A DNA stretch of 64,000 bases, taken from assembly GCA_044892525.1 (NCBI GenBank), contig CM097888.1, positions 49,104,001 to 49,168,000 of the forward strand, read 5' to 3'. The first letter of the stretch is position 1, and every line of letters begins with the position of its first letter. The DNA comes from Schmidtea polychroa. Its lineage: Eukaryota. The notes under the pieces were generated by a model. That model was not told the DNA's origin. It was given only the letters and a program-made list of their open reading frames with translations, and searched no databases. Below, piece by piece: positions 1 through 61,900 of the stretch. Position numbers and translations under genes: made by a program.

Positions 1-830
1 TTGATTGCACTTATTCTTCCACTATTTTACTTCTATCATTGTATATTCTTTTATTATTTTTTCCATTCTCTAGATATCCGGGAAACCAAATACTGCTCCT
101 GATGAACTCTTTTCAATTGTGCTTTGAAATTTAAAGTTTGAATAGTAGCATTTAAAGTAAACTCAATTTTAGGTAACACTTCAATCCAACCTCTAATTCC
201 TCTTAATGATGTGTTGATAAAATTTCGTATTGTTCGAAATTGTCTTTCAATCAAACCATTAGTGTTATGAAAATAAGGACTAGAAAATTGTAGCTTTATA
301 TTGTGATTTTTTGCCAATTCTTTTATAAATTAGACTCAAATGTTTTTCCACAATCAACATGAATAACTCTCGGTGCCCCATATTTTAATATCCAGAATTT
401 CACAATAGTATGCGCTGTAGTTTTTTCGTCTTGCTTTGATACTGCTGTCAACAAACTGTATAGACTACACATATATATAATTCCCAAAAAATATTTCTTT
501 CCATGAATGTTTACCTGCAAAAGTCCACAAAAATCTATCGCTATAATCTCAAACGGTTCCATCACTTGTGTTTTTACAACTATTTCTTTTTTTTTATTGT
601 CAAGGTTTTCGTTTCTGACATATTTCACAACTTTGTATATATTGAGCCGTGATTGTATTTAATTTCACCATATCGTAATTAACTTTTATATAATCGATTA
701 CAATTTTACATCCAACGTGACACAGAATCAGTTTACATGACTCATAGATACGGATACCATATTTTTTATGTGCCAAACCAAAACGTATGGTAACCCTACT
801 CATAGATACTCATGTATATATTATAAGAAC
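1..830 (-). mobile_element. Decayed Ty3/Gypsy LTR-retrotransposon integrase (pol remnant may extend to ~1700)
   Basis: Three broken ORFs: Zn-binding '...CHVG...SCEICQK', core 'PFEIIAIDF...YGAPRVIHVDCG' and 'SSPYFHNTNGLIERQFRTI...W...L...EFTLN'. Confidence 0.85.
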
Positions 831-9600: not shown

Positions 9601-12600
9601 TACATTGGGAAAAGTTATTAAATATTAATTTTTATATTTTCTTTAAATTATTTGTAGAAATTTGAATTTTTCTAATGAATTTCTACCTTTTTTGATCTTG
9701 AAAATCTTTATTTGTATTCTTTTAAATAAATAAATAATTAAATGAATAATAGAAAATCGCCAACTAAGTATATTAAAATATAACATTGCTATATGTTTCG
9801 ACCGTTTACCAGTCTTCTTCAGGCTAAGAATCGTACTAATAACAACTAAATGAAAATAAGAATATTCAAAGTGCCCAGTCTACAAGGATTTTGAATGTAT
9901 TTAAATAATTTAACTTTTATATTTATTATTTGGGATGATGTTATTGTTAAATTTTTTGTATGAAATTTATAATTTTTTTGTTTTATATTAATTTTAAAAA
10001 TATTTTTTAGTTTGATACAATTTGATTACTGTTAAATTATATGTCTACATAGCTAGATAATTCTCTTTGTCTTAGTTTATATATTAAAATTGAATATTGT
10101 TATTATGTATAGCTGTTACTGTATAGAAATCTGTTGAACTCAACCGAGTCACCTGTAGAAAATACTGTCTCGGGACAGTTGGGGTACTTGTTTGTAGGTT
10201 ATATAATTGAAAAAAATAACAATAACGAAATTGAATCACTTAATAAACTCTAATAAAAAGACACTTACAATCGTTGAAATAGTTCATAAATATAATAAAC
10301 GATCCAAATTCCAAATATACCAAGTGCGAATGTTTGTCTTCTTTCATTTTCTTTAATTTCTCTTACAAATTTCTTTTGAGGATTTACAACTTTATTCTTT
10401 TAGTTTTTCATTAACTTTTGTATTGGCTTCTTTTTAATTATTCAATTTTTAATATAGTAATATAGTAAATTATATAGTAAATTATCGATATATAGTTTTT
10501 ATTTTATTTTTCTACCCCGCACGTCACACGCAATCAAAAAATAGAAATGCATTACAAATGATAATCTTAAAATTAAAAAAATCATATAATACTACATTAA
10601 CGATTATTATTTGTTAATTGGTTTGAATATTCTTATTTTCATTTAGTTTTTATTAATATGATTCCTAGCCTGAAGAAGACTGTTAAACGGTCGAAATATA
10701 TAGCAATGTTATATTTTAATATACTTAGTTGGCGATTTTCTATTATAAAAAACTTTGCCTTCTTTCTTTGATTATTTATATAAATAAATATTAATATAAA
10801 TATTAATAATCTTTATCTTATCAAATTCCAACCAAAGACTAAGAAACGGTTAACTGAATATTTTTGGACGAAAATAAGATTTAGAAATCTTTACATGTAA
10901 ACATCCAATGTCTACCGAATGTCCAAGATATCAAAGACTGTCGGACATGATACATTTCTCATCAAAATATTTCATCGGATTTGTTCCTTGAAAGATACAC
11001 TGTTTATAAGTTTCAATTATTTTTTGCATTATTAACATTGACAATTAAGATTTAAAGTGTATTTTTTATTTTGTTTTTATCTTGAATATTATTAAAACGA
11101 ATTTCCACAAAATATTTTTTCAATATTTCATTATTCGTAAATTATATTCATACAGGAATTTTTAATACTTTTATTAAGACAATTAATTTAATTTAAATAA
11201 TTAAATTACTTATTTCTACTCCATATCTTCTTTCATGTGTTTGCCACATTACCTATATTCTGTATTTTTTTGTTTTAATTACATTGATAATCAAGATAAA
11301 AATTCAAAGTACTATACTATTTCAAATATATTAAAACAAATATGTATAAAATAAGTAATTGCACAAAATTATTTTTAAATCAATTTTTAATAATAAGTTA
11401 TTATTAATAATTTATTAATGTACTTATTTAACAGTAAGTTTACAAATTTCAATATTATAAATAAATCTTTTTGAAAATTATGTTGATTTTAGTTAAAGTT
11501 TTACATAATTTATTGAAAAATTAAAATTTTATAAATGAAATAGTTTTAAATATTAAAAACACTGATTAATAACATGTATTGAATGATTGTGTACTGTTGA
11601 AAATCTGCTGAGTGAATATTTCTGAAATTCGTCTTTGAAAAACTAACTTTGGCTTTAGAAATTTATATATCTCAATTAAGTATATATTTATATATCTCAA
11701 GTCCAGATGAAATACTTTCTCAATTAATGAAGAGACAACGACGAATTAATATTATATTGCAATATATCCTATGTAATATACATTTTTAATAATTAATAAT
11801 AAATTTGTTAATTATCTTAATATTTTTTTTCAACTTCTAACATTGCTCGATGAATTGCAATAATTAATGGTTTTGCCATCCCACAGGTTGTAATCGNNNN
11901 NNNNNNNNNNNNNNNNNNNNNNNNNNNNNNNNNNNNNNNNNNNNNNNNNNNNNNNNNNNNNNNNNNNNNNNNNNNNNNNNNNNNNNNNNNNNNNNNNNNN
12001 NNNNNNNNNNNNNNNNNNNNNNNNNNNNNNNNNNNNNNNNNNNNNNNNNNNNNNNNNNNNNNNNNNNNNNNNNNTATTTATTATAATTTAGCGCCGTAAG
12101 AAAATTAATACTGTTCATAATAAATTATGTTTTTTTATAAACCTACAAAACTACAATATTAAGGAGGCTGTAGTCAATATTAAAATCCCCCACATAAATT
12201 ATAGATTATCAAATATAAATTAGGGATAAAATATTTTCGTAAAACCTTTATTTTGGTTTTGTTATAGGAATTGTATGAGAATAAAAAAAACTAAAGAAAA
12301 TGGACGAAGAAATTCAAAATTTAATAACGTAATTGATTTCTTTCAAAAAGATATATATTGTAATATATCCTATGTAATATACATTGTTAATAATTAATAA
12401 TAAATTTGTTAATTATCTTAATATTTTTTTTTCAACTTCTAACATTGCTCAATGAATTGCAATAATTAATAGTTTTGCCTGACGTCCCTGATTACAGCCT
12501 GTGGGATGGCAAAGTTTGTAATGTTTATATTATTTTAATGTTAGACATCCGTAAACAAAATATTTTACACTATAATAAATAAATTGATAAATTTAATACG

Positions 12601-18600: not shown

Positions 18601-21600
18601 ATTGTGAATGAAANNNNNNNNNNNNNNNNNNNNNNNNNNNNNNNNNNNNNNNNNNNNNNNNNNNNNNNNNNNNNNNNNNNNNNNNNNNNNNNNNNNNNNN
18701 NNNNNNNNNNNNNNNNNNNNNNNNNNNNNNNNNNNNNNNNNNNNNNNNNNNNNNNNNNNNNNNNNNNNNNNNNNNNNNNNNNNNNNNNNNNNNNNNNNNN
18801 NNNNNNNNNNNNNNNNNNNNNNNNNNNNNNNNNNNNNNNNNNNNNNNNNNNNNNNNNNNNNNNNNNNNNNNNNNNNNNNNNNNNNNNNNNNNNNNNNNNN
18901 NNNNNNNNNNNNNNNTCCAGCGCACTTTCAAGGTCATGGAATATCAAGATCAAATATAGACCAATCGAATCATTTATTTTTTAAATTAACATTTTATTTA
19001 ATTACTTCTTTTTAATTTTTCTTTTTAATTTTATTAATTAATTATTTTATGATGTTATATTTTAATTACTTACTTTATTTAATTTTTAATTTATTACATT
19101 TAATTAATTTATTAGTTTATTAATATTTTATTNNNNNNNNNNNNNNNNNNNNNNNNNNNNNNNNNNNNNNNNNNNNNNNNNNNNNNNNNNNNNNNNNNNN
19201 NNNNNNNNNNNNNNNNNNNNNNNNNNNNNNNNNNNNNNNNNNNNNNNNNNNNNNNNNNNNNNNNNNNNNNNNNNNNNNNNNNNNNNNTATATTTTAATTA
19301 CTTACTTTAGTTAATTTTTAATTTATTACATTTAATTAATTTATTAGTTTATTAATATTTTATTNNNNNNNNNNNNNNNNNNNNNNNNNNNNNNNNNNNN
19401 NNNNNNNNNNNNNNNNNNNNNNNNNNNNNNNNNNNNNNNNNNNNNNNNNNNNNNNNNNNNNNNNNNNNNNNNNNNNNNNNNNNNNNNNNNNNNNNNNNNN
19501 NNNNNNNNNNNNNNNNNNNNNNNNNNNNNNNNNNNNNNNNNNNNNNNNNNNNNNNNNNNNNNNTTTTATTATGTTTTTATTTTAGTTACTTACTTTAGTT
19601 AATTTTTAATTTATTACATTTAATTAATTAATTAGTTTATTAATATTTTATTTTAATTACTAACGTTATTTAATTATTATTATTATTATTATTTATTTAT
19701 TATTATTATTATTATTATTTATTTATAATTATTATTATTTTTTTATTATTTTTTTTTTATCACTAACTCCCTCCCAAATCGGTGGTAATTCTGTTATTGA
19801 CTGTAAAACATCCATTGATGTAGCCATATCATAAGGAAAAATGGTTTTACAAGTCATCATCTGCGATTCGAAAACATCTGAGGTCAGTGGAAGACATGGT
19901 AAATTTTTTGATAAATTTGCCAAGCTGCTATTTAAAAATTGTAAAGAATCAATGAATCTAATTCTTCTGCCTTTCGATGTCGCTGTAAGTGTGAGAAACT
20001 TTTCTGTTGATTGAGGAATAACATTTAAATTCCAATCAGGGAATTTTCCAATTGCATATTTTAATATATGATGAATGTCATATCCACGAAGATTATGAAA
20101 TACAACAGGTAAAGACGGATTGATTCTTCTAGTCAAGTTGCAATCTTGACATGCTGCTCCGAGATATTGACCAGTAAAATGATCATGATCTCGAACAGGT
20201 ATATTGATAATCTTTTTACAAAGGTAGCAATGTGTTTGAGTCGTGAATTCTTCCTGCTGTTCCCAAGTGAGTTCCATCATTTCCTTTGATCCATTAGTTT
20301 TATACCACGGATAAACTATGTCTGTAGCTATATCATCCAATGCTTGTATAAACTGAATGATACAGTTTTTCCCAACAAATGTTTCATTTCGGATCGGACA
20401 ACCTTGATGAAGAAGCACAAATTCAGATGCAATCGGCTCATGTTTTTGGAAGTGCTTGTCATCTAGAGGTAATATTGATTCAAAGTCCGCGTAGACAACA
20501 AACTGCTGTTTTATAGTTTTACTCCAGTCTTCAAATTCGATATATTTATTCTCTGGCATTGAGTATAGAGTCGTCCGCTCCACATTCTTCCTACAAAGAC
20601 CTATATGTCTTTCAAAAGCAGGACGTTTTTGAAACCCATGAAGACACGTATGACACCAATGTGATTGGATTCTGACTCCTTCTACTTTATCTCTGTAATT
20701 CAGCAGTCGATCGAGATTGGTTACAGCCAAAAAATGATAATTTAATTCTAAAATTTAGTTAATATTTTTAATGATTAAAAGAAATATTACCTTCTTCAAT
20801 CAATAAGAGATATATCTGAGATCCCGTCGAAGTACTTCTATATACCAAGTCAACGAACGGATTCTTGAAAATATCATTAGTTTTTTGTTTAATTGGATCT
20901 TTATTATATTTGAGAACATTGATCGCTAGATTTGGATTCATTGCTTCAAATTGGCAAATGTTAACCAACTTCATCGGAAACTAATCTGATTTCCATTTTA
21001 AGTCTTAAAAACAAAATTCAATGATTTATGACATTTATAAATATATATATTACCACTTAAGTTATATTTTGTTGTTCTTTCTCTATCCCGACGTATGTCA
21101 TCATAATGTAATACGGCCAGTATGCTATATAAAAAGCAGAATTGATCATTATTTTGAACATTAACTAAAGCCTGACAGTTTTTCAGGTAATTTGGCGTTT
21201 TAATGTAACTTGAACCTAAGTAAATATCTTGATTTATATATATATAATAATGTAAATAAACTTACCAGATACATGTATTATGTCTGATAATTTAGTTAAA
21301 ATCATAGTAACTTCTAATATTTTATGAATTCTCCACCCACTACTTTGTTGAGTGTATTTCTCCAACTTTTCTTTTAATTTTTCAATTCCATCATTAATAA
21401 ATGAAGATGACATTGTAATTGCTTTATTCGACAAACACCATTTTTTAATTTCACCATCCTCTTTGATAAACTCTGCACAAAGTCCAAATTGGATTTTTAC
21501 TGTACCCATTCGTTGAATATGATCTTCTATTTCTTTGATGAGACAATCTGGAACAACAATGTCAGGAGAATTAATTGCAGATACATCGCTTGTCAATTCA

Positions 21601-24600
21601 ACACGAGAACCATTTAAGTCAGACTCCCGGCGTGGACACAATTGTATGTTAGAGTAAGTAATTAAAATATAACATCATAAAATAATTAATTAATAAAATT
21701 AAAAAGAAAAAAAAAATAAATAGAAGTAATTAAATTAAATTTAAATTAAAAAATAAATAAATTAATTAAAAAAAAAATAAAAATAAAATAAAAATAAAAA
21801 TAAATAATAATAAAGCGTAAGTAATTAAAATAAAATATTAATAAACTAATAAATTAATTAAATGTAATAAATTAAAAATTAAATAAAGTAAGTAATTAAA
21901 ATATAACATCATAAAATAATTAATTAATAAAATTAAAAAGAAAAATTAAAAAGAAGTAATTAAATAAAATGTTAATTTAAAAAATAAATGATTCGATTGG
22001 TCTATATTTGATCTTGATATTCCATGACCTTGAAAGTGCGCTGGAGTCCTTACTACATACTACTTAATAATAATAATAATTTTCTTATACCTGTCGATTT
22101 TTTATAACTTTCTGTAAAAGCTTTTACTACTCAATAGATCTATATCAAACAATATTCAAGTATTATATCCTTCTACAGTGGTGGACATAGGTTTAACGGC
22201 ACCTATTTCAAATTAGAAATTTATTAAATAGCAATTAGCAATCAATTTAAAAGTTAATAAGCATATTGGAGCAGTTATCAGTTCTTATTATGTAATCCTT
22301 TAGCCTTGATGACAGCATCAATCCTTGTTAGCATAGAATCCACTAGACTACATCAATTAGCAGGAGTAATTTCTGTTGACTAAACCTCCTGTATTTTCAG
22401 TTTTAAATCAGACGCAGATGATAACTTCTTAGCTTAAACTTTATTTTACAATTGTGTCCAGCAATTTTCAATTGGGTTAGATTTAGAGATGATCAAACCC
22501 AGCATTCCATTCACAGGAATATAGTGTTCAATGAGCCACTTTTTCACAACCTTTGCTGAGTGGAATGAAGCTGTCATGAAGCAGATGGGTGACAGATGAT
22601 GACAAACTACTCTTACATAATTAACTTTTTTTCAATTTTCACCTCTGATTTCGTTTCAATTGACATTAAAAAGCTTGGCTATGAATCAGTAAATAAATCC
22701 AAAAAACATCGATATATTTACTGATTCATAGTCAGGCTTTGTAATAAATACAATAATTAACATCATAAATATATCAATATGTAATGTCAATGTCAATCAC
22801 ATGCGTAACTTCGTTTATTACATTCAGCTGAATTGCTTTAATGTGATTATATTATATGCAGAAAGAAATATAAATATTAAATCATTTATTGCTTCTTTAT
22901 TTAGATTTAGTATCTGCAAATGATGAGGACCTAACAGAAAGTGAAAGAAACAACGAATCATATCAACAACAAATAACACCAGAATACCAAGAAGTTAAAA
23001 ATCGCTATTTGCAAGACTCTACTTTCGGTAAATCTAAATCTCGACGTCATAATTTACAAAATTCTCTTTTCGATAACAAATCACAACCTCCTTCAGAATC
23101 GGCCAACTCTCGAGAAACTGCTTCATACAGCATGCAATACCAAAGGTATCCCAATTATCTTAACTTTACAGATCATGAACGAGATGGGTCTCAGTACAAC
23201 GACTATCAAACCGAAGACGATTATAATTTTCCTTTAGTTGACGACATTATCAATTCCAGCCAATCATCTGAAGAGGAATACGCAACCTATGAAAAGAATT
23301 CACAATTTAATGACAACGAAAATCATTTTAATCAAAACTCAGATTTCCCATTATTAGAAGAAATTCTCGATGATCAAGGTTCTCCTCCTAACAATACCAG
23401 AGAAACCGAATTAGAGAATAAAGATGCTGATTTTCACACTTATCCGAATTCCACATTTAAACCCGATTATAATTACAACAAACAGGCTGAAATTTCTGTT
23501 AATTATGACAATTTTGATAGGCATAATACTTTGATGGCCTACTATGACCAGTGTGACAGTCAATTTGAAGATTATTTTTATTCAGAAGAAGAGTTTCGTG
23601 CAATTGAAAACTTTCAGATCTACAACAATGAACTCATCCGTCGGAGCATCAATGAAGAAAATTATTTTAATAGAGCAATTGAGCAATCCGACACCGATAG
23701 TGACATAGCTAAATTTGCTGCTACTATAGCCAACGATACAGCTCATTTAACCTATCAGACTTTCAATTATGATGAAGAGCTTTCAAATGCTTATCAAACC
23801 ACTTCGGACTTTCAAAACCCAGAGCAGAATAATGCCATAACTGATCAAAATTCAATGTTATCTCTTAATCCTACACCGGCCTTATTAAGCACAGAACAAT
23901 ATATTTTTCAAAAATCTGTTTTATCCCCTATTCAGGATCTTTCTCCAAATTCATCCAGAGCGGAAGNNNNNNNNNNNNNNNNNNNNNNNNNNNNNNNNNN
24001 NNNNNNNNNNNNNNNNNNNNNNNNNNNNNNNNNNNNNNNNNNNNNNNNNNNNNNNNNNNNNNNNNNNNNNNNNNNNNNNNNNNNNNNNNNNNNNNNNNNN
24101 NNNNNNNNNNNNNNNNNNNNTGTTTCCTCTAAAAGAGAACTTATAAAATGTGATCATGACTCAGATGAAGAATGTCCATGGTGCTATCGTGATTCTTCGA
24201 GTAATGCTTCAAAGGATAATAATTTTTCCTCCTCCATATCATCTTCTCCATTGTCTTCTAAATCTTCTTCCAATTCTTCGTTGTCGTCTAATGAAACTGT
24301 AAATCATAAATCGAAATCACAACTAAAACGATGTCAAAACTATGAGAACATTAGCGGCCTGTCAGAGTCTGCCAGTGCTGACACTCTTGAAGACAATAAT
24401 TCGATTCAAGAAATGATAACCGACGATAATTCTGAACAACCAGTTCAAAGTAACAAACCGAATGAGCTTAAAAAGGTATTTTGTTTATATTATTAATTTA
24501 AATTATTTTTTATGCTACTTACAAATCTCAGTAGATAATATATGTATAAATTAGACATGAATGTTATATTAACTATTTTATTAAATGTGACATGTTGGTG

Positions 24601-27600: not shown

Positions 27601-30600
27601 AGGTTTAAAAATACACTGCTCTGGTCTTTGCTTAATTTCATTTATTTTTATTTTGACTAAAAATTCAATCCCGATTTCTGTTAGATAGAAAAAGTAATTT
27701 TTGATATAGAGTCATAATAAGTTTCGGATGACAAATTTGAGAGTTAAAAAATATAGAAATGCAAAAACTAATTAAAAAAAATTTATAATTAAAATAATAT
27801 ATAATTAAATTTTTACAACATTTATAAAACATTAAAATTTTATTAAAAAGAACTTTTTTCAACCATTGATTTCTTTTCAATTGATATTGTATTTATTAAA
27901 AAATATATATCAAAATAAATAATATCAAATATATATATCAAAAAAACATCGATATACTTACTGATTCATAGTGAAGCTTTTTAATTAATAAAAAATAATT
28001 TTAAATAAAAATAAACTTATTATTATATTGAATGATTGTGGAATTCTGAAAATCCGAAAATTTCGTTATAAGATTTTGTTTATTGTAAATAAATATTATC
28101 ATATTGAATTAATAAAAGCTTTTTTATCAGACACCGAAAATAATTTTTGTATATAAATATTTCTATTTTAATTAAATGCATTAGTTAGAGGGAAGCATGT
28201 ATGTTTATAATACTTTCTATGTTATTTCTATGTTTATTATATGTAAATTTTGGATAACCTCAATATTGTTTATAGCAATTATGTTATTATCATTACAAGG
28301 GTAAAAATACAAGAGTAAGGTATTTATTTCATAGATTGCATGTGGATTGCATTTATATTGCAATTTCTTTGTTATACTAACATTTATGGTGGTTTCTACG
28401 GATGATTTTTGCATTAATCAAGAGTTAGAGTTTTCTATGATAATTTGCATATGTGAGGAATCTTATCAGTGGAAATTGATTCTAAAAACACTAAAATAGT
28501 AAATTATGCGACAATATATTGGGTAAATTAACACATTTAGTAATAGTTTCTGATAAATATTGTTGATAATGATAAGAATGGTTGAAATTTTTGATAAAGT
28601 AGTGAAAATAAAATGAAAGTAATAAAAATATTGATGTCGAAGTAAAGTAATGATGAATAAAGTATTGAATGTGGTTGATGTGCCGGTAAAGAAGATAATG
28701 GATAGTTTAAACCAGTGGTTCTTAATCTGGAGTACGTGAAAACATTTTTGGGAGTGCAAGTGAAGTCTTTAAATTTTTAATAGAAACTATCACCTGTGAG
28801 AAACGTCTATTTTTGAAACTTACAAAGTATTGTCATAAGTAAATGGACATCCCATAAAATAGAAAAAATGCTTTAAATCATTAGTAACATCACATTACAA
28901 GAACTATAATATAGTTAAAATACAAAATTTACATACCCCTATTGACAGGGATCCTATATTGTGTCAATTTCGTAATTCAGGAAAATCCAGTGTCAACCCT
29001 TGTAGTGGGCGACCAAATTCATCGGAGCGTACTCTACGGTCTGTGCCACGAAGTGATGAGTCTGATCACCGTACAACAGTTTCTCAAATTACAAAAGAAG
29101 CTGCTATATCTGCGTTTAATGCACGGCGTTATTTGAAGAGGATGGGATACAATGGCAGAGCTGCAAGACGAAAGCCACTTTTGAAATAATGAAAATTCAA
29201 AAGCAAGAAATCCTCGAATTAAAATTTGGAAAATGGGTTAGATGTAAAGTAGATGATGGGAAAGATTATGGCGAGAACGGATTCGTCAGAATATGTTCAA
29301 AAAGGGTCGAAATGCAAGAAAACGTACAAAAACAAAAAAGAGTTAATTAATTAATTATTTAAGAAAATCCCGAGTTAAGTAAACAGAACGAAAAGTAAAT
29401 AAAGTGGATTCTGGATAAACATTATTATGACAACATGAAAACGGGAAAAAGAATATTGCAAGGAAAACACACGATGAGATTATTAATTTTTTCTTTCGAA
29501 GGAGAAAAGATGAATAAGATCGCGAGGCAAAGCTTGTCAATGGAGACAATCTAGTCGAAACGTTATTAATCAAGGCGATTATTTCAATTATATAAGGGAG
29601 TTCAAATTCATAAACAATTGGCATTTTGCCTGAAGTAGGGACGAAGAAATCTACAGTAAGATTAAAGGAAAAATTAAAGTCAGAAAATAGAATTAACTTA
29701 AGTCAAAGGAGTAAAAAAAAGAGGTGATTGTTGTTGCAGAACGTGCATAACCAAAGCGGTTACAGTGAGACTATGGATTGCAATATCGATAATCGATAAA
29801 TCGATAAACCGATTATTCGGACAAAAATATCATTTTAAAATTATCGATAAATCCTCTAAATATTATCGATAATTCGATAAATAAACCAACACACATTTTT
29901 CAATTTCTGAAAAAGTTTTTCAAAATTTTCTATAGTTTAATTTTTCAAAATTAAAAATTTCAACAGTATGCAACAGTAGGCTTTGTTTTTACAATTAAAC
30001 TGTGAAATTTAATGGTTACTACTAGTAACTTACTAGAATATTTTTAAAAAATTGAAATTGTTTGTTTGTAAAATTGTTAAATTTGAACTTCTACATTTTG
30101 CGAGACTTATTCAATAGTCAGAATAGGCATTTGATTGCGATATTCGGAGTTTTATAAATTGTAGATTATACGAATTTGATAACAAATATACTTCAAGTGT
30201 TGTTTGTTTAAGTGTTTTTACAGAACACGTGGAGTCAGAAACTTTGAGCACTTACACATGATATAACGAAAAGGCAAATGAAGTGTAAAACTATTGACTA
30301 GATAACAGCAAAATAGAGATGATATTGATGATGTTTGATAAAAAGAAAGAGTGAATATAAAAATATAATGTTTAATGATAAATTAACAAAGCAATAGGAA
30401 TAAGCGATGAAAATGGTGGTCATTTTGGAGATTTTTCCTCTTTGTGCCTTACTGTCTTTACATATAATTTAGCCTCGCTCAATTATTTTATGAATAAATA
30501 TAAAGCAATAAAGTTATTATACTTTACCTCCGGCAGAAAATGTGGAGTTCAATAAGAAAAAAATGTTGGAAATTTTTTTTGTTTATATTTCCAAATGTTT

Positions 30601-33600
30601 GTTAGGCAATTAATAAATAAATGGCGCTCAAATAGTTTGACACACATAAAAAATTAAGTGACAGCCTTGTTGAATTGAAGTTTCAAATCAATGCAACTTT
30701 ATTTGTATTATTCTTTGTTTTACTAGATATCTGTAACTATTTCATAATTAATTACAATTTTAAATGTATATCATATTTTTGAACGGAAGGAATATATTAG
30801 ATAATGAAATATGAATATGTAATAATAATAAATAATAAAAAATTTGTCCATGTCATATTTATTGTCTATTATTTATGTTTTATTGGCAACTGAAATGGCA
30901 TTGCGCCAAATTATTGTGTCAATTTCATAATGAATTTTTGTTTATCTAAACTGACTAGTCAAATTTATTTCATAATAATTTTCTCTCTGTATTTCATATT
31001 ATCTCTGGATTATGATTATTATATTTGATATTAGGATTTGTTTAAATCTGTCAAACAAATTGAGGGGAAATTCACTTTAAATTATAGTGTCAAATTGAGA
31101 CTGATGAAATATGTTTTCCCAGTCTCGAATGTCTACTCGTTGTAGAATCGAGTCACAGGAAATCATGAAAATTTGTTTACTTACGTTTGAGTTATAAACA
31201 ATAAATAAATACAATAAGAATATTTTGGATGTTACTAATTTTTTTATTTTTACTCCCAATTTCGATTTGGACTCTCACGATTGCGGATGAATGCTTTTTC
31301 CTGTCAGTTTACTTGGTTCCGTAATTCATATGTATTGTTTAATTCGGATTAGCACTAATTTGTTGCAAACAATTCCCTATGAATCGTACAATTTGGTGTC
31401 CTGGTTCTCTGTTTAGTGCCTTCTCTCGACCATACCATTTTTCTGTAAATCCCATCCGTTTTATTTCTCTTTGTTATCTTCTCCCTCATAATAACTGACG
31501 AACTTGTCACTCACATGAGTGGTTGTCGTTGGCATAAATTCCGCGTTCAGAGATTAATGAAGTAGGCAATAAATTTAGGATTTTTTATTTTATAAATTTG
31601 AATTTGACTAACTTGATTCAGTTTAGTGAGTAGATAATAAATATACTCTGAAGTTAAATTAAAACAAAAATTTATGTCTCTCAAGATACTANNNNNNNNN
31701 NNNNNNNNNNNNNNNNNNNNNNNNNNNNNNNNNNNNNNNNNNNNNNNNNNNNNNNNNNNNNNNNNNNNNNNNNNNNNNNNNNNNNNNNNNNNNNNNNNNN
31801 NNNNNNNNNNNNNNNNNNNNNNNNNNNNNNNNNNNNNNNNNNNNNNNNNNNNNNNNNNNNNNNNNNNNNNNNNNNNNNNNNNNNNNNNNNNNNNNNNNNN
31901 NNNNNNNNNNNNNNNNNNNNNNNNNNNNNNNNNNNNNNNNNNNNNNNNNNNNNNNNNNNNNNNNNNNNNNNNNNNNNNCGTCATAGGCTAGATATCTTAA
32001 GAGGTTATTGTTTTGTCAAAAGCCTTTTTTAATGCAATTTGTCTCCTTTTGATCTCCTTTTCTTGAATAATTTATTTTCTTTATTTTCATTTCTAGTTAC
32101 ACTTTAAATAATTGAAAGTAGTTTCAACTTGAATATAATGAAAATAAAATATTTATTATTTATTTTTCTCTTGATCTCAAGTAAAAAGAAATTTAACTGA
32201 TCCTTAAAGACAATATAATAGACAATATGCATAATTTTTGTATTTTAATTCTGATCTCCCGAAATTACAGACATATTCATTAATACATTTCAATGACATT
32301 TCTAAATTGAATCGGAAATTTATGAATAATTAATCTCCATCATTGTGTCAAGCCTGGGAAACCAATTTATTGAAACATAGAATAATTCTCTGAATACTTT
32401 AGAGCCTCAGCCTATCAAGGCAACAGTCTGTGGATGTTCTCGCTGCAGAATCAAACGACCATGCAGAGAATACGGACATAAAACCTACAGACTACCCAGA
32501 CGAATTCACAACCGACACAGAAAACTCTCTCCACAGCAAAACAATTATATATCCAGTGCCTTTGACTGATTCTCAACACACAGTTGGGAAAATCCAACAA
32601 AACAAGTATTATAATAATAATTCATTTTTTTTCAGAATTGATCACTTGAAATTCTCTGTTTTACAGGAAATACAATGAGGAGAAAAATTGCTATTCATCA
32701 TATGTCCACACTGAAACAATAACATCCCAATGTTGTGAGCAGACGCACTATCCTTCATCCTTAACTCTCATTGGTAAGCATGCGTCAACTGAAAGAAATC
32801 CAGCTCTCTGCAATAAAATCTCTGATACCAGAGAAGCAAAATTTCCCAGTTCTATATCAAAAATAGTAAATGAACAATCCAACGAACAAACAGCTCATAC
32901 AACAACTGTTTCAACATCAACACCAAATAAAGTCTCGTCAGAAAAATTCACTGCCTACACTAGCTACAGTCGCGCTGCAAAAAACTCTCTACTTAATAAA
33001 CTATGTATACAATTGCAGGTTCCAACTCACATTAAAAATAGAAAGTCACTCATCAATGAAGAAATTCTTCTCGTCACTCAAATTAAAAGACAACATTTGA
33101 AAGATTTCGTTCAGATTCAAAATGTGGAATTACAGCTGAATCATTTACGTAATATCGAAAAACAGCAAATGACAGAAATCCAAGACAAAATGGCAGAAAT
33201 ACAAAACGCGAAATCCGGTTTGTCGTATCCTCGTTTGTCGAAATCTCGTTACGTTCCAAATTACGTCTCTAATACTGATAATAGTTATTATTACTACGCT
33301 CCCCAACGAAATCATTATCGCTATCCCTATCCTCAATATTACTATCAAAATCCGTATCCTTATCGGCAAGATCAAGTTTACAAATGCGATCCGAATTTTG
33401 ACGATCAGAGATCAACATATTCCATTCACTCCTCTCCACAATGCCTTAGTTATGGGGGTTCTTATCCGCGAGAAATGAAATATAATCCTTACTACTACAT
33501 TGATCCTCCGGTGACATCCTCAAGAAACTTTTCCCGGTCTACCGATCAAATAGCGATGCATAATTTCCCTAATTATCCAATGGAAATGTCACACTCCGAT

Positions 33601-35889
33601 CAAGGTCTATTTAATATGACGTATAATTATCCATATAAAATGAATGATCGCTTTGCCTTTAACATTGATATAGAATTGATGCAAAAAGAACAACGAGTAC
33701 TGGAATTGGAAAGAGAAATCGAATTGAGAAAACGACAAATTGAAGAAACAATACGCTACCAAGAGGAATTGTTACAACTAGCCGAGCTAAATAACGTCAA
33801 CGTAAATGAATACAAAAACAATTACGTCCAGAATAACAATCAGCCAATCATGGATTACGATGTCGTCAATGAATATTACGTCAACGAGAAATCTCAATCA
33901 AGGCAATATTCGGATGAATTAATAAATCCGTATTATCCATATGACGATCTGCCTCCAAATCATCAACAATTCGCTAGTTATTACGACAATCTTTACCAAC
34001 AAAATGAGCCTAGAGATAGCATTTGTTATGCGGAGCCAGTATTCCAACAGGATCCCTATTATTCACAGCAATATCTCCAAAATGTGGAGGGGTCAAATAT
34101 CTACGGAAAACATCAGGAGACCAGCACTGGAAATATGTTCGACCAACAACAGCCGAGATATTCATCTAAATCGTATACAACAGAAAAAAGACCCCCGGGT
34201 AACTCATCAGCCCATGACCAAATTGATTACATCATACAAATGGATAAAGATAATGATAAATCTCATAATATTTCTAACAACAACAACAGCAATAACAATA
34301 ATAATAATAATAACAATAATAATAAGATCGCTTATAAACAAGTGCGACCATTGTCCGGTGAATATGAAAATGTGGCACCTTTAGGTCAGTTTTGTTTTAA
34401 TTTTTATTTCAAAAAATTTATTTTTANNNNNNNNNNNNNNNNNNNNNNNNNNNNNNNNNNNNNNNNNNNNNNNNNNNNNNNNNNNNNNNNNNNNNNNNNN
34501 NNNNNNNNNNNNNNNNNNNNNNNNNNNNNNNNNNNNNNNNNNNNNNNNNNNNNNNNNNNNNNNNNTCAAACTATTGTTGAATTGTGTACAGATCTTGTTT
34601 ATCAATTTACATGTAATGAGTGCAACACCACATACACTAGAGAGACTTCTCGTCATTTTTGTACCCTAGTTTTTGAACATTAACCAATAATAGTGAGCGC
34701 AATAATCCCTATTTGAGTATAATAAGTATGATTTTAGAATAATTATTGGGAAAGTTTAATATGTAAAGCGTTGTTGATAAAAAATCATTAGAATAATGTG
34801 GAAAATACTGTGAACACTTGTGCTTTGAATGTCTTTTAAAATGTGTCGGTGGTAAATTGTGATTATTTGGATTGTTGTTGTTTTTAAATGTATATTTTTT
34901 AATATAATTTTTTAATAATAAATCAAATTAATTATATTATAAATTAAATTAAAAATTAAATTAAATTTATTAATTTTAATTTTCCTTTTCACCCACTTGA
35001 AAATGCAAATAAAAGAAATTATTTATTAATTTTAAAAAGTCAGAAATTTACCAAAAAATATATTTATGTTATCAATGATTTATGTAAGTTGTCTGATCTG
35101 CAATATTTATATTTGGGAGTTATTATTTATTTATTTTTTAGCTCATTGGTTATTCATTTCTATTTGACAAATGAAGTGATTAAAACAATCAATTCATTCC
35201 TTTAAATTTGGAGAAATTTATTTCTCTTGACTGTCTGAGTTCTTTTTTTATTAAATTATTTTTATCCGAGTAATATTTAAATAAAAATTCAAGGTCAATT
35301 TGAAATTTTATGAAATACTTCTTCATAATTAAGTGAAAAAGAGCCGTTTTAAACAAACAAAATTTTTCATTTCTTTTAAAAATGAAAATAAAAAGATCTA
35401 GCTCTTGGTAATTGGTTTTTATAGCCTAACGTTTCTATAGGAGACTAGTTCTTTTTATATAGGTGTTTTAATTTTTGATTTTTGCTTTCTTTTTTTATGT
35501 CTTTATAGATCACTATAATGTCTAAGTTTTCTTATTTCATTTTGTAATTTCTTTATTGCGAAGGAGTAAATATTAATTCCAAAGACAAACTCAGGTGGCG
35601 CTTATAATTCTTGTGGGGTGAAATGTTTCTACAAACGAACTCGTATATATTGGCAGATTAGGAGCGAGTTCTTGCACCATTTTGCTACCCACTGCATTGC
35701 GGATGGTATGATGTGATTCAATTAGGATTAATGTTCATATCTCTACAGTATCTAATAATTTTAATATTTTATTCATGTTAGAAGTTGAAATAGCATCATT
35801 TCATGAGATTGAGCAATCGGTCTTTTTGAAATTTATGCGTTTTTCAAAGAAATGAATAATTCGAAAGTGACTTCTTGAATGGATTCTCC

Positions 35890-58900: not shown

Positions 58901-61900
58901 AATATAAATTCTTATCTATTCATTAACTTCGGATTAAAGAGATAACGTAATTATATTTAAAATATGTTGAAATGAAGTTGAAATTATTTAATCGATTGAG
59001 TATGCTTCGGGTTTTCCTCGTCGCTTGGGTTTCTCATTGACTCGGGCTTCAGATTAGCGATTAATTAATTTTTAATTAATTTGATTTTACGATATAACTT
59101 TTTCTGGGGACCCCTTGCTAAATTTTTACTATTATTTCTGGAGTCGTCTCCAAATTTGACGTGAATAATGGCCAGATTTTATGATTGATGGACTGCATTT
59201 TAGTTTACCATAAAACTATAACCTGATTTTAACTACGATGATTGGATTGAAGAAAATTGCGATTTTATTGCTGAGAATTCAAAGGTTCTTGAAAATGAAG
59301 AATGATGGGATTGGTTTTGGCCGCAGAATGACCACAAGTTTCTAAATGTATTCATGAAATAAAAGAGAAAGCTTTTATTCGATATCTATGACTAAAATTT
59401 ATAAGCAGTGGTAAAATTTCTTCGTATGGCAAAATTTATGCAATTGCACTTAAAGAAAAATGGTGTTTAACAGTGGTGCATCGTGAAACTAGGCTAAAAC
59501 TGTGTTCAATTTGAATCCTTGGGGCTCGAAATCCTTTGGATCCTTTGGATGCTCCAAAAGAAGTATCTAGGTGTTCTATTCGAAAGGGAAAAAATCAGTT
59601 TTCAAAAGAAAAAAATTATAATTATATATAATTATATAATTCCTAGGTGTTATGTTCGGGATAAGACTGTAACAAACACAGTTATTATTAGGGCGACCCA
59701 AAAGTTGCAAAAAAAAGTTGCAAAAGTTGCAATAAAAGCTGACTATAAAATAATATTAAATTTTTTATTATTTACTACAAAATATAAATATAAAATCATT
59801 AAAGTAGAATTTCTTTGTAAACGGGAAAACAAGCAAAAATTCTTGATAATTCTTTGGTCTAATGTTTCGGATCAAATTGTTTTTATTCATCAACTGAATT
59901 GAAATAGCAGATAAAGTAATACGGAATATTATTTCCGTTATAATTCCTGTCCTCTCTTAACATTCTTTTCAGCATTGAAAAGCTCCTTTCCACGTCAATT
60001 GACGTTGGCTGGCAATTTTTTAACTGAGAATATGTTGCTGGCGAAATTTTGTCGTTAGACAACTCCAAAATGTTGTTTAAGTCGTTTTTAAACATTCTTT
60101 CCTGAATATAAGATCTCAAATTACAAGGGTCCTCTTTGAAGTCGAATTCATTTATTCTTTTAAATGTACTTTCAATTCAATGTTTTGAATCTTCAAGCTC
60201 ATCAGCCAATACAACTAACCCCCTGTAACAATTAAATATTTCTTCCAACTCTTTTGTTATCGTTTCTTTAAAAATAGCCGTTTTCGCATTTTCGATCAAT
60301 ATTCCCTTTTGAGTTATTTCCTTGAAATGTAATTTTATTTCTGGCAGTATTTTAGAATAAATTAATGCAGCGCCAAGCCAACTTGACCATCGTGTTACAA
60401 TAACATCTGGAATATTGCCTGCCTTAGAAAGAATTCTTTTATTTTCTTTATTTTTTGCCGTTATTGACTTAATCGCAGAAATCATATTATCAGCATCTTT
60501 GTAGTGAATTTTTAACCGCATTGCACAATCATGAATTAGGTGCGCAATACATTTAATTGAGAAAAGGTTTGGATGCACGATTTTTAAATGATCGGCTGCT
60601 TTTCGCATGTAGCTAGCATCGTCGCTTAATAACAGCAAAAATTGTTTACTTTCAATTTCAAGAATATCAAATGTTTCATTTATAATGTTGACTACAATTT
60701 GGTGGGTTATCGGAGCTTTCAGGTGTATTAAATTGGCCGCGTAAACAACTTTAGGAGATTCGATTGTTCCTATTAATACCATGGCGTATTTTTCTAAGTT
60801 GATTGAAGTTTCATCCACAACAAGAAATATTTCTTTGTTTTTGACATAATCTTTCAATTTATTCAAAACTGCTGGGTATGTATTTTGAATAATGTATCTT
60901 CGCATACTCGATTCAGATGGAAGTGGATAGGTCATGAAATTAAAGAGCCTTTTGAGACTATTATTTCGTAGTTTGTGAAGCGGCAGGTCGATTGATATTA
61001 ACGCGGTTGTTAATATTTCAAGAAATTCGCTCTTCTTCACGCTTATAAAGTCTTGTTTAGCGGGTTCTTCGCTATTTAATTGGGATAATAAGGTGGAATG
61101 CTTAAGACTTCTTCGGTGTTTTTCAATCGTATATTTTCTTTTGTGGTCAACTGTTTTAGAACACAGATTGCAGTACAACTGATCGTTTGGGGCCATTACA
61201 AACTCCTTATTGTATAATGCACAGTATTTTCTAATGTTCGAATTATTTTTCATGGTAAAAAAAATTAAAAATCTATATATGAATATATAATTTTTAAATC
61301 AAAAAATTTCCAAAAAAAGTCAAAAGTTGCAAAAGTTGCAAAAAGTTGCAAAAAGTTGCAATGGGTTGCCCTAGTTATTATATCATTTTTAATTTGAATA
61401 TGCTATAAGCAGAAAATTTGAACATTGCTCGACATATGAATGCATTTCATTAGTTATTGTTATCTAGTAAGTAGTAGTAATTATTTTCGTTCGTTCACTT
61501 TTGATTTGTTTTTTTTTCTTAGAATATGATCTGGATTTATAGATCGATTCTTTTTCCTATTTAACATTCGTTTTTGGCAGTATTTGATGCACAAAAACAG
61601 GCAACGAATATAAAACACAAAATAATCGAAAGTATGCTAATGTGATTAAGGAAAATCACTTAGTCGACTTAAAAACGGTTTTATTTTATTTAAAATTTGA
61701 AAGATTCCTAATAATAAATTAGTAACTAAATACGTTTTTATTTAAAATAATTTACAAATGTATATTAATTAACCTTACTTTGTTACTCAGGGCCGATACA
61801 GCTGATAGTAAATCGAGTAATTCATCTTCAGTAACAACCGACTTCCTTAGTGAAGAGCAGCGTGAAATAGTCAGAAAATGGCTTGGTCCAGGTCAATTGC

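Follow-up and report, generated by a model that had tools for sequence, protein, structure and literature searches.

Is the polymerase gene of a Polinton spliced by its host, and if so, what kind of element carries such a gene? The question is raised by a stretch of 64,000 nt from Schmidtea polychroa (contig CM097888.1, positions 49,104,001 to 49,168,000), referred to here as the window. An original prediction had recognised in it, on the minus strand, a Polinton/Maverick DNA polymerase gene (pPolB) interrupted by three introns, and had taken it for one whole gene in a lineage that had gained introns in its replicase. We find that the three introns are real. Their carrier, missed in that earlier reading, is a giant palindrome encoding only a polymerase and not an ordinary Polinton. 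We assign a probability of roughly three in four to the reading that the window contains a dead fragment of a high-copy Polinton-derived palindrome, in whose arms pPolB has six introns spliced by the host and whose integration depends on a helper.

The family gene has six introns (i0, iA, iB, i1, i2 and i3) and not the three first taken as its total. The three segments in the window lie exactly where they had been placed, with the predicted lengths and phase:

21216..21265, minus strand: intron i1, 50 nt, GT-AG, phase 1 (21265-21216, GTAAGT..TTACTTAG), in the linker between the terminal-protein and vOTU domains, at the same codon as introns of the relatives L199 and L205.
21004..21053, minus strand: intron i2, 50 nt in this copy, GT-AG, phase 1 (21053-21004, GTAATA..TTTTTAAG), found only in this family.
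20748..20790, minus strand: intron i3, 43 nt, GT-AG, phase 1 (20790-20748, GTAATA..AATTTTAG), at the same site as introns of L199 and L205 and with its junction joined in sequencing run X1.

The GC content of these segments is 12–14% compared to 31–37% in the exons, and ACTAA, a candidate branch-point motif, precedes the i3 acceptor. We consider them true introns because their length varies among copies while that of the exons is fixed, because their removal restores the alignment with homologues and because the exons on either side of i3 are found joined in two contigs.

Homologue alignment was examined with 60 of 120 listed homologous proteins, those of at least 1,090 aa. Compared to uninterrupted homologues, the gap is exactly one split codon in 36 of 39 cases at i1 and 37 of 41 at i3. 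The restored alignment that had been claimed for all three junctions thus stands for these two; at i2 it holds for the closest relatives but not for most homologues. The closest relatives fit i2 exactly, which favours the donor at 21053 over the alternative at 21056.

Full-length arms elsewhere in the genome carry two CCAAT boxes, a TATA box, the six introns, all phase 1, and AATAAA beyond the stop codon. To judge from these signals, the RNA polymerase II expression suggested earlier is plausible. The inner exons measure 228, 57, 444, 162 and 213 nt. The start codon is divided between A and TG by the first intron in 66/66 arms, and the alignment of exon 1 to homologues P0009 and P0015 begins at residue 2. 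Splice sites, counted in a set of 80 arms, are intact in 65/66, 67/67, 67/67, 71/71, 72/74 and 77/77 covering arms for the respective introns. Among arms, i2 varies from 39 to 103 nt and, in 53 elements, off-frame length changes occur in 61 of 277 intron observations versus 4 of 281 exon observations. Exon variants common to at least three elements have a non-synonymous to synonymous ratio of 0.19, compared to 0.69 for singletons. The synonymous character of shared variants and the fixed exon lengths indicate that the gene was under selection while the family spread, and this comparison upholds the proposal of spliceosomal-type introns in a Polinton-type pPolB. The noted resemblance in size to host introns (44–61 nt) is loosely supported: a crude scan, which recovered only 1/3 of the known element introns, gave five unverified candidates of 45–65 nt outside the element. 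The introns are not significantly similar to each other (the best 2 of 15 pairs were matched by 5/300 shuffles, not significant after 15 tests), although old copies could have diverged. A host-genome search with part of a homologue that crosses all three junctions retrieved no intronless copy of the family among 150 matches; these were 43–47% identical and belonged to other families or were unresolved, so that an intronless copy could still exist.

Joined exons were found in X1, a run guessed to be RNA (0/15 runs are recorded as RNA). One contig reaches the final base before i3 and ends with 15 letters of the following exon, and in a second, 13 letters from the exon before i3 lead into the sequence that begins at the end of this intron. 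Both represent the spliced i3 junction, in a run that is only guessed to be RNA.

What carries this gene became apparent in the host genome (781 Mb searched), where the family of the window element is labelled P. A DNA search gave 40 scored matches (96–100% identity) and a protein search 123 (97–100%), many with 870-aa open last frames and many arranged as minus-plus pairs separated by 4–9 kb. A 22-mer from one exon has 694 exact matches genome-wide, 347 on each strand; the first 100 include 28 divergent pairs (56 matches) and no convergent pair. All ten pairs fetched are palindromes, with arms of 4.4–6.6 kb that are 99.2–99.97% identical, each carrying one pPolB pointing outward. The inverted repeats cover nearly the whole length. 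Nine of the ten retain both ends, are 10.6–14.6 kb long and are flanked by exact 6-bp target duplications (9/9). Polinton ends start with AG, as do the palindrome ends. The last-exon frame of full arms matches PF03175 with E 1.6e-30 and includes the catalytic motifs.

No match to integrase, capsid, ATPase or protease queries was obtained within ten P palindromes and four of a second family, Q, while positive controls of these queries matched multi-gene elements; nor do the arms contain a further coding-looking open reading frame of at least 110 aa. Of the properties of an autonomous Polinton, the palindromes have pPolB together with 6-bp duplications and inverted repeats, and have neither integrase, capsid, ATPase and protease nor intronless core genes. 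They thus behave as Polinton replicons without qualifying as autonomous Polintons. Some of 36 apparently unpaired loci inspected had a partner arm; the remainder were truncated or interrupted, and none of the 36 showed an intact multi-gene element around the family P pPolB. In one locus (L099+L067+L068+L100) a palindrome with a 6-bp duplication interrupts one of the genes of a multi-gene Polinton from family A, and further arms adjoin family A or B genes (L065, L087, L101, L118).

Family Q (L171-L178) also consists of polymerase-only palindromes (4/4 fetched). Its pPolB is 54% identical to that of P and groups with multi-gene Polintons, and P and Q share about 1.6 kb of DNA, from the centre and the promoter side, at 86–93%. 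The non-palindromic centres are 0.3–2.5 kb long, have inward-facing AGTAGAGTAG motifs at their borders and occur with at least two different interiors (L061-L080, L171-L178). These AGTAGAGTAG motifs look like Polinton ends; the Polinton-end-like centre motif has 249 matches, mostly as close pairs.

The window copy is a much reduced member of family P, with the following features:

18897..22064, no strand: deleted copy of the palindromic pPolB element, 3,168 bp, with both termini and one gene fragment.
18897..19761, plus strand: left AT-rich terminal arm, an AGTAGT-type Polinton end.
19735..19761, minus strand: fortuitous extension of the frame into terminal-arm sequence, as far as TAA 19737-19735.
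19762..20747, minus strand: 5' third of the last exon, with the vOTU end, an endonuclease-VII-like stretch and exonuclease I and II motifs; the polymerase half is deleted.
20791..21003, minus strand: exon 5, 213 nt, vOTU domain, holding a premature stop in this copy.
20981..20983, minus strand: premature TAG at exon 5 codon 7, present only in the window copy and its segmental duplicate.
21054..21215, minus strand: exon 4, 162 nt, where the vOTU domain begins.
21266..21655, minus strand: 3' part of family exon 3, terminal-protein (little-finger/PAD-like) domain as placed by the homologue model.
21656..22064, minus strand: right AT-rich terminal arm, an AGTAGT-type end, directly abutting the deleted 5' end of the gene.
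22065..22070, plus strand: 6-bp target-site duplication TAATAA; the identical six bases precede the left end.

The termini were placed at this locus (L001) in the host genome, and the inverted arms 18916-19132 and 21829-22045 are 100% complementary. The duplication is weak taken alone, since it sits within a (TAA)n run. A second locus, L002, is a 98.7% identical copy with flanks in common and hence a segmental duplicate. The one whole polymerase frame of the original prediction does not survive: the frame has no ATG, the 5' end of the gene being deleted at about 21655, homology stops at 19762, the PolA, PolB and PolC motifs present in full arms are absent, and the tail is run-on into the terminal arm. 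Likewise, a single TAG is not where the frame ends; the TAG at 20983-20981 is a premature internal stop. Pfam matches of the last-exon fragment are PF03175 (E 1.8e-07, weak) and PF02945 (E 6.1e-05). Judged from its sequence, the window copy is a pseudogene fragment, a 3.2-kb element left by a double deletion.

Elsewhere in the window there are remnants resembling DUF659 (60177-61298, minus strand), an rve integrase (323-658, minus strand) and a Tc3-type helix-turn-helix (28863-29189, plus strand), all below curated cut-offs. Two long low-complexity frames on the plus strand (22874-24496 and 32650-34683) have no Pfam match and are possibly large host exons.

The domain layout was derived from a model of residues 1-370 of the closest homologue (mean pLDDT 86). 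It contains a little-finger/PAD-like domain at 119-226 (Z 8.4, root-mean-square deviation 2.5, 91 residues aligned) and an OTU fold at 239-370 (Z 7.2, deviation 3.3, 98 aligned). Z scores of 7–8 are middling alone, and many independent entries of both folds concur; a Foldseek search gave no match at E ≤0.001. Intron i1 falls at about residue 234, between the two domains, i2 and i3 within the OTU fold, and iA and iB in a low-confidence linker. The exonuclease and polymerase motifs are both located in the last exon.

How such elements might multiply can be outlined from these features. Host RNA polymerase II would transcribe the arm gene and the host spliceosome would remove its introns, giving a protein of terminal protein, vOTU, exonuclease and polymerase that could copy the element from its ends. 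The displaced strand would fold into a near-perfect hairpin, and copying of this hairpin would make the arms identical; integration would be provided in trans by an integrase that multi-gene Polintons of the host genome encode. A fold-back replication model exists for Polintons. Over about 1.8 kb the median difference between the two arms of an element is 0, versus 1–3.5% to other copies; of the private substitutions, 52 are present in both arms and 16 in only one. Since arm identity and private substitutions common to both arms fit fold-back hairpin copying, we lean slightly towards this origin of the identical arms.

Are the introns old or new? Among 87 metagenome and virus loci, 24 permitted the junction test; lineages and not samples were counted, as metagenome records may share a source. 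A first metagenome scan with the last-exon protein as query gave no match, and a virus scan gave 12 distant loci (25–33%). L199 and L205 have 43–48-nt phase-1 GT-AG introns at the i1 site (2/14 measurable loci) and the i3 site (2/21), while i2 is found at 0/19 measurable metagenome loci; i0, iB and i2 are found only in family P. Three introns, all phase 1, are present in each of L213 and L216, the first of them at the iA place. L194, near-identical to L213, also encodes an integrase, an A32-type ATPase and capsid-like proteins and is a multi-gene Polinton. The loci nearest to family P, L191-L193, are uninterrupted, with a TATA-like box upstream in L191 and L193. Read by eye, L202:150-520 contains tandem exon-plus-intron units upstream of pPolB. 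A TBP-family protein (PF00352) is encoded in multi-gene Polintons at L194:10321-10779 (metagenome) and L186:3508-3975 (host genome).

Other families of the host genome share the trait in part. Family Q has three leader introns, phase 1, and family A one. In C and D a matching acceptor marks the opening of the long frame; in E the frame begins at the same point, and B has an in-frame ATG. The original prediction had proposed that introns be sought in other element genes, and families C and E have one in their integrase gene (L183+L184, ~10,450-10,490; L179+L180): a 43-nt phase-1 GT-AG intron, absent from D, A and L194, with the intron and the next exon both starting GTAAA. The carriers of i1 and i3 do not form a clade on quick trees, L199 and L205 lying in another subclade than family P; both trees are midpoint-drawn from the last exon only, and no order of gain and loss is claimed. 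This distribution implies repeated loss, recombination or parallel gain. The introns are best explained as an ancient trait, patchily distributed in a Polinton clade, with gains and losses on several branches or movement by recombination.

Phase 1 is shared by the integrase intron and by all 22 pPolB introns placed by hand, which come from seven lineages. They represent 16 distinct sites, 16/16 in phase 1, for which the chance probability given local base context would be about 1 in 10 million for independent sites, a condition that does not hold; the seven homology-fixed sites give 0.0004–0.0015. Base composition fails to explain the bias. A blind intron scan, which missed family P and gave phase-0 and phase-2 calls, was replaced by hand placement. 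The uniform phase 1 is real; our leading guess is that symmetric exon-intron units spread by being duplicated and swapped, and that selection maintained them.

Several observations weigh against the helper-integrated, host-spliced palindrome as we interpret it. Family A, as a potential helper, has ends that agree with those of the palindromes only over the first five bases. Among the first 100 exon 22-mer matches, 44 are unpaired, and several of the inspected unpaired arms adjoin genes of other Polinton families. The likeness of the arms might be due to assembly polishing or to conversion once the element had inserted. Because the arms examined were best hits, their intactness (50/65) is overstated. 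At the i2 junction only 3 of 29 homologues show a one-codon gap, the other 26 carrying two additional residues. The blind scan disagreed on some of the relatives' leader introns, whose placement was manual. Regarding the junction reads which the prediction called for, i3 is joined but five of the six junctions were not seen spliced among the contig joints listed; contigs of X1-X3 pass unspliced through i0, iA or iB, and X1 also covers DNA upstream. Finally, the control for a joined i3 form in a DNA-like run covers listed joints only and is hence incomplete.

The alternative that survives best, possible but clearly behind the reading we prefer, accepts the introns but regards the palindromes as passive: Polinton deletion derivatives with overgrown repeats, copied and inserted by a helper, whose arms were homogenised by later conversion. 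Disabling changes in both arms of some inserted copies agree with this (a stop in L061/L062, a frameshift in L025/L026, a stop in L096), as does the window copy, which has kept its two ends, with a matching 6-bp flank, yet has no working gene. Passive derivatives would not be expected to have mostly synonymous shared exon variants (0.19) and fixed exon lengths, nor to include two unrelated pPolB lineages on one backbone. At the other extreme, the palindromes could be self-copying satellites that combine hairpin replication, polymerase swapping and a borrowed integrase, with the phase-1 rule of their clade allowing one gene to give separate terminal protein and polymerase by alternative splicing; we consider this full scheme doubtful.

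A related and still less likely proposal treats the phase-locked introns as a control device: retention of i1 or skipping of symmetric exons would yield free terminal protein or a protease-less polymerase, comparable to adenoviruses, in which one spliced unit supplies both proteins. The position of i1 between the little-finger-like domain and the OTU fold, the stop met within ten codons on reading into i1 in the window copy, and the 16/16 phase-1 sites speak for it. A nearby stop in an AT-rich intron is however what chance predicts, i2 and i3 interrupt the vOTU fold itself, the integrase intron is phase 1 too, the closest relatives L191-L193 work without these introns, and no isoform was seen.

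That all introns were gained recently and in family P alone, in line with the lineage-specific gain first put forward, is improbable. The restriction of i0, iB and i2 to this family, with i2 at none of the 19 measurable metagenome loci, and the uninterrupted nearest relatives in the tree would agree with such a gain; the i1 and i3 codons are shared with L199 and L205 and the iA place with L213/L194 and L216. As these loci lie in another subclade, recent gain would need exact parallel gain three times. Domestication of the gene by the host, an early step of which the original prediction had offered as an alternative, is very improbable: the host-like promoter and introns would suit it, but the window copy is a broken pseudogene fragment and the family consists of hundreds of young dispersed insertions with target duplications. 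Equally improbable is the view that the segments are decay insertions or assembly errors, never spliced, for despite the unspliced contigs of X1-X3 they occur in every covering arm, change in length but not in their GT and AG ends, and are also present in independent metagenome records.

The host-spliced palindromes can be compared to known systems, the papers being cited from the portions of their text available. They resemble animal Polintons/Mavericks in pPolB (PF03175), in inverted repeats at the termini and in 6-bp duplications (PMC8097293, 10.1101/2023.08.22.554363), but lack integrase, capsid, ATPase and protease, and their repeats of 4.4–6.6 kb hold pPolB, which is thus present twice, in contrast to Polinton repeats of 100–1,500 bp. 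No introns are described in intact vertebrate Mavericks, where only intronless elements were counted intact (PMC8097293), compared to six in the palindrome gene. The layout described for Polinton pPolB (terminal protein, vOTU, exonuclease, palm; PMC11161782) is matched by the closest-homologue model; in the palindrome gene the N-terminal domains extend over five short exons, and the available text of PMC11161782 mentions neither introns nor splicing. Introners occur in dinoflagellate Polinton-like elements (PMC12166617), and nematode Mavericks have introns in cargo only, their core genes being intronless (10.1101/2022.07.12.499685). Both share with the palindromes spliceosomal introns inside Polinton-type elements, but these are recent transposon-made introns or captured host genes, whereas the palindrome introns are old, not significantly alike and at conserved core-gene sites. 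The unrelated polymerases of P and Q in one backbone recall the polymerase exchange reported in nematode Polintons (10.1101/2023.08.22.554363). In endogenous virophages no introns were found according to the available text of PMC8547959, and that of PMC8502044, PMC11296320, PMC12220804, PMC6431247, PMC8532177, PMC7851563 and 10.64898/2026.07.28.741278 contains nothing further on introns in such core genes. The literature search, whose scope did not include Repbase, Dfam and supplements, found no description of a spliced Polinton pPolB or of polymerase-only palindromes.

Adenovirus E2B has a three-codon leader exon. Its protein-primed polymerase is also produced from a spliced nuclear polymerase II mRNA, in a related virus lineage (PMC7851563), but there long leaders are spliced to separate genes, while the palindromes have 41–52-nt introns within one fused coding sequence. 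The palindromes are polymerase-only and mirror-image in the manner of two further systems, but unlike these they exist as hundreds of integrated nuclear copies with target duplications. These systems are the pPolB linear plasmids, which are polymerase-only replicons with inverted ends, and the snap-back defective viral genomes, which are mirror-image and helper-dependent.

The element in the window is thus best read as a remnant of a host-spliced, polymerase-only Polinton satellite, likely integrated by a helper integrase. Polinton core genes are treated as single open reading frames, and spliced ones are therefore annotated as truncated or degraded. If splicing of pPolB and integrase genes holds throughout the clade, annotation is overlooking active elements as well as the N-terminal terminal-protein region. 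The introns would point to nuclear expression of these elements, and their uniform phase-1 sites make them a compact system for the study of intron gain and loss. Finally, palindromes whose arms are alike at private sites offer a direct test of fold-back Polinton replication, which has so far rested on analogy.

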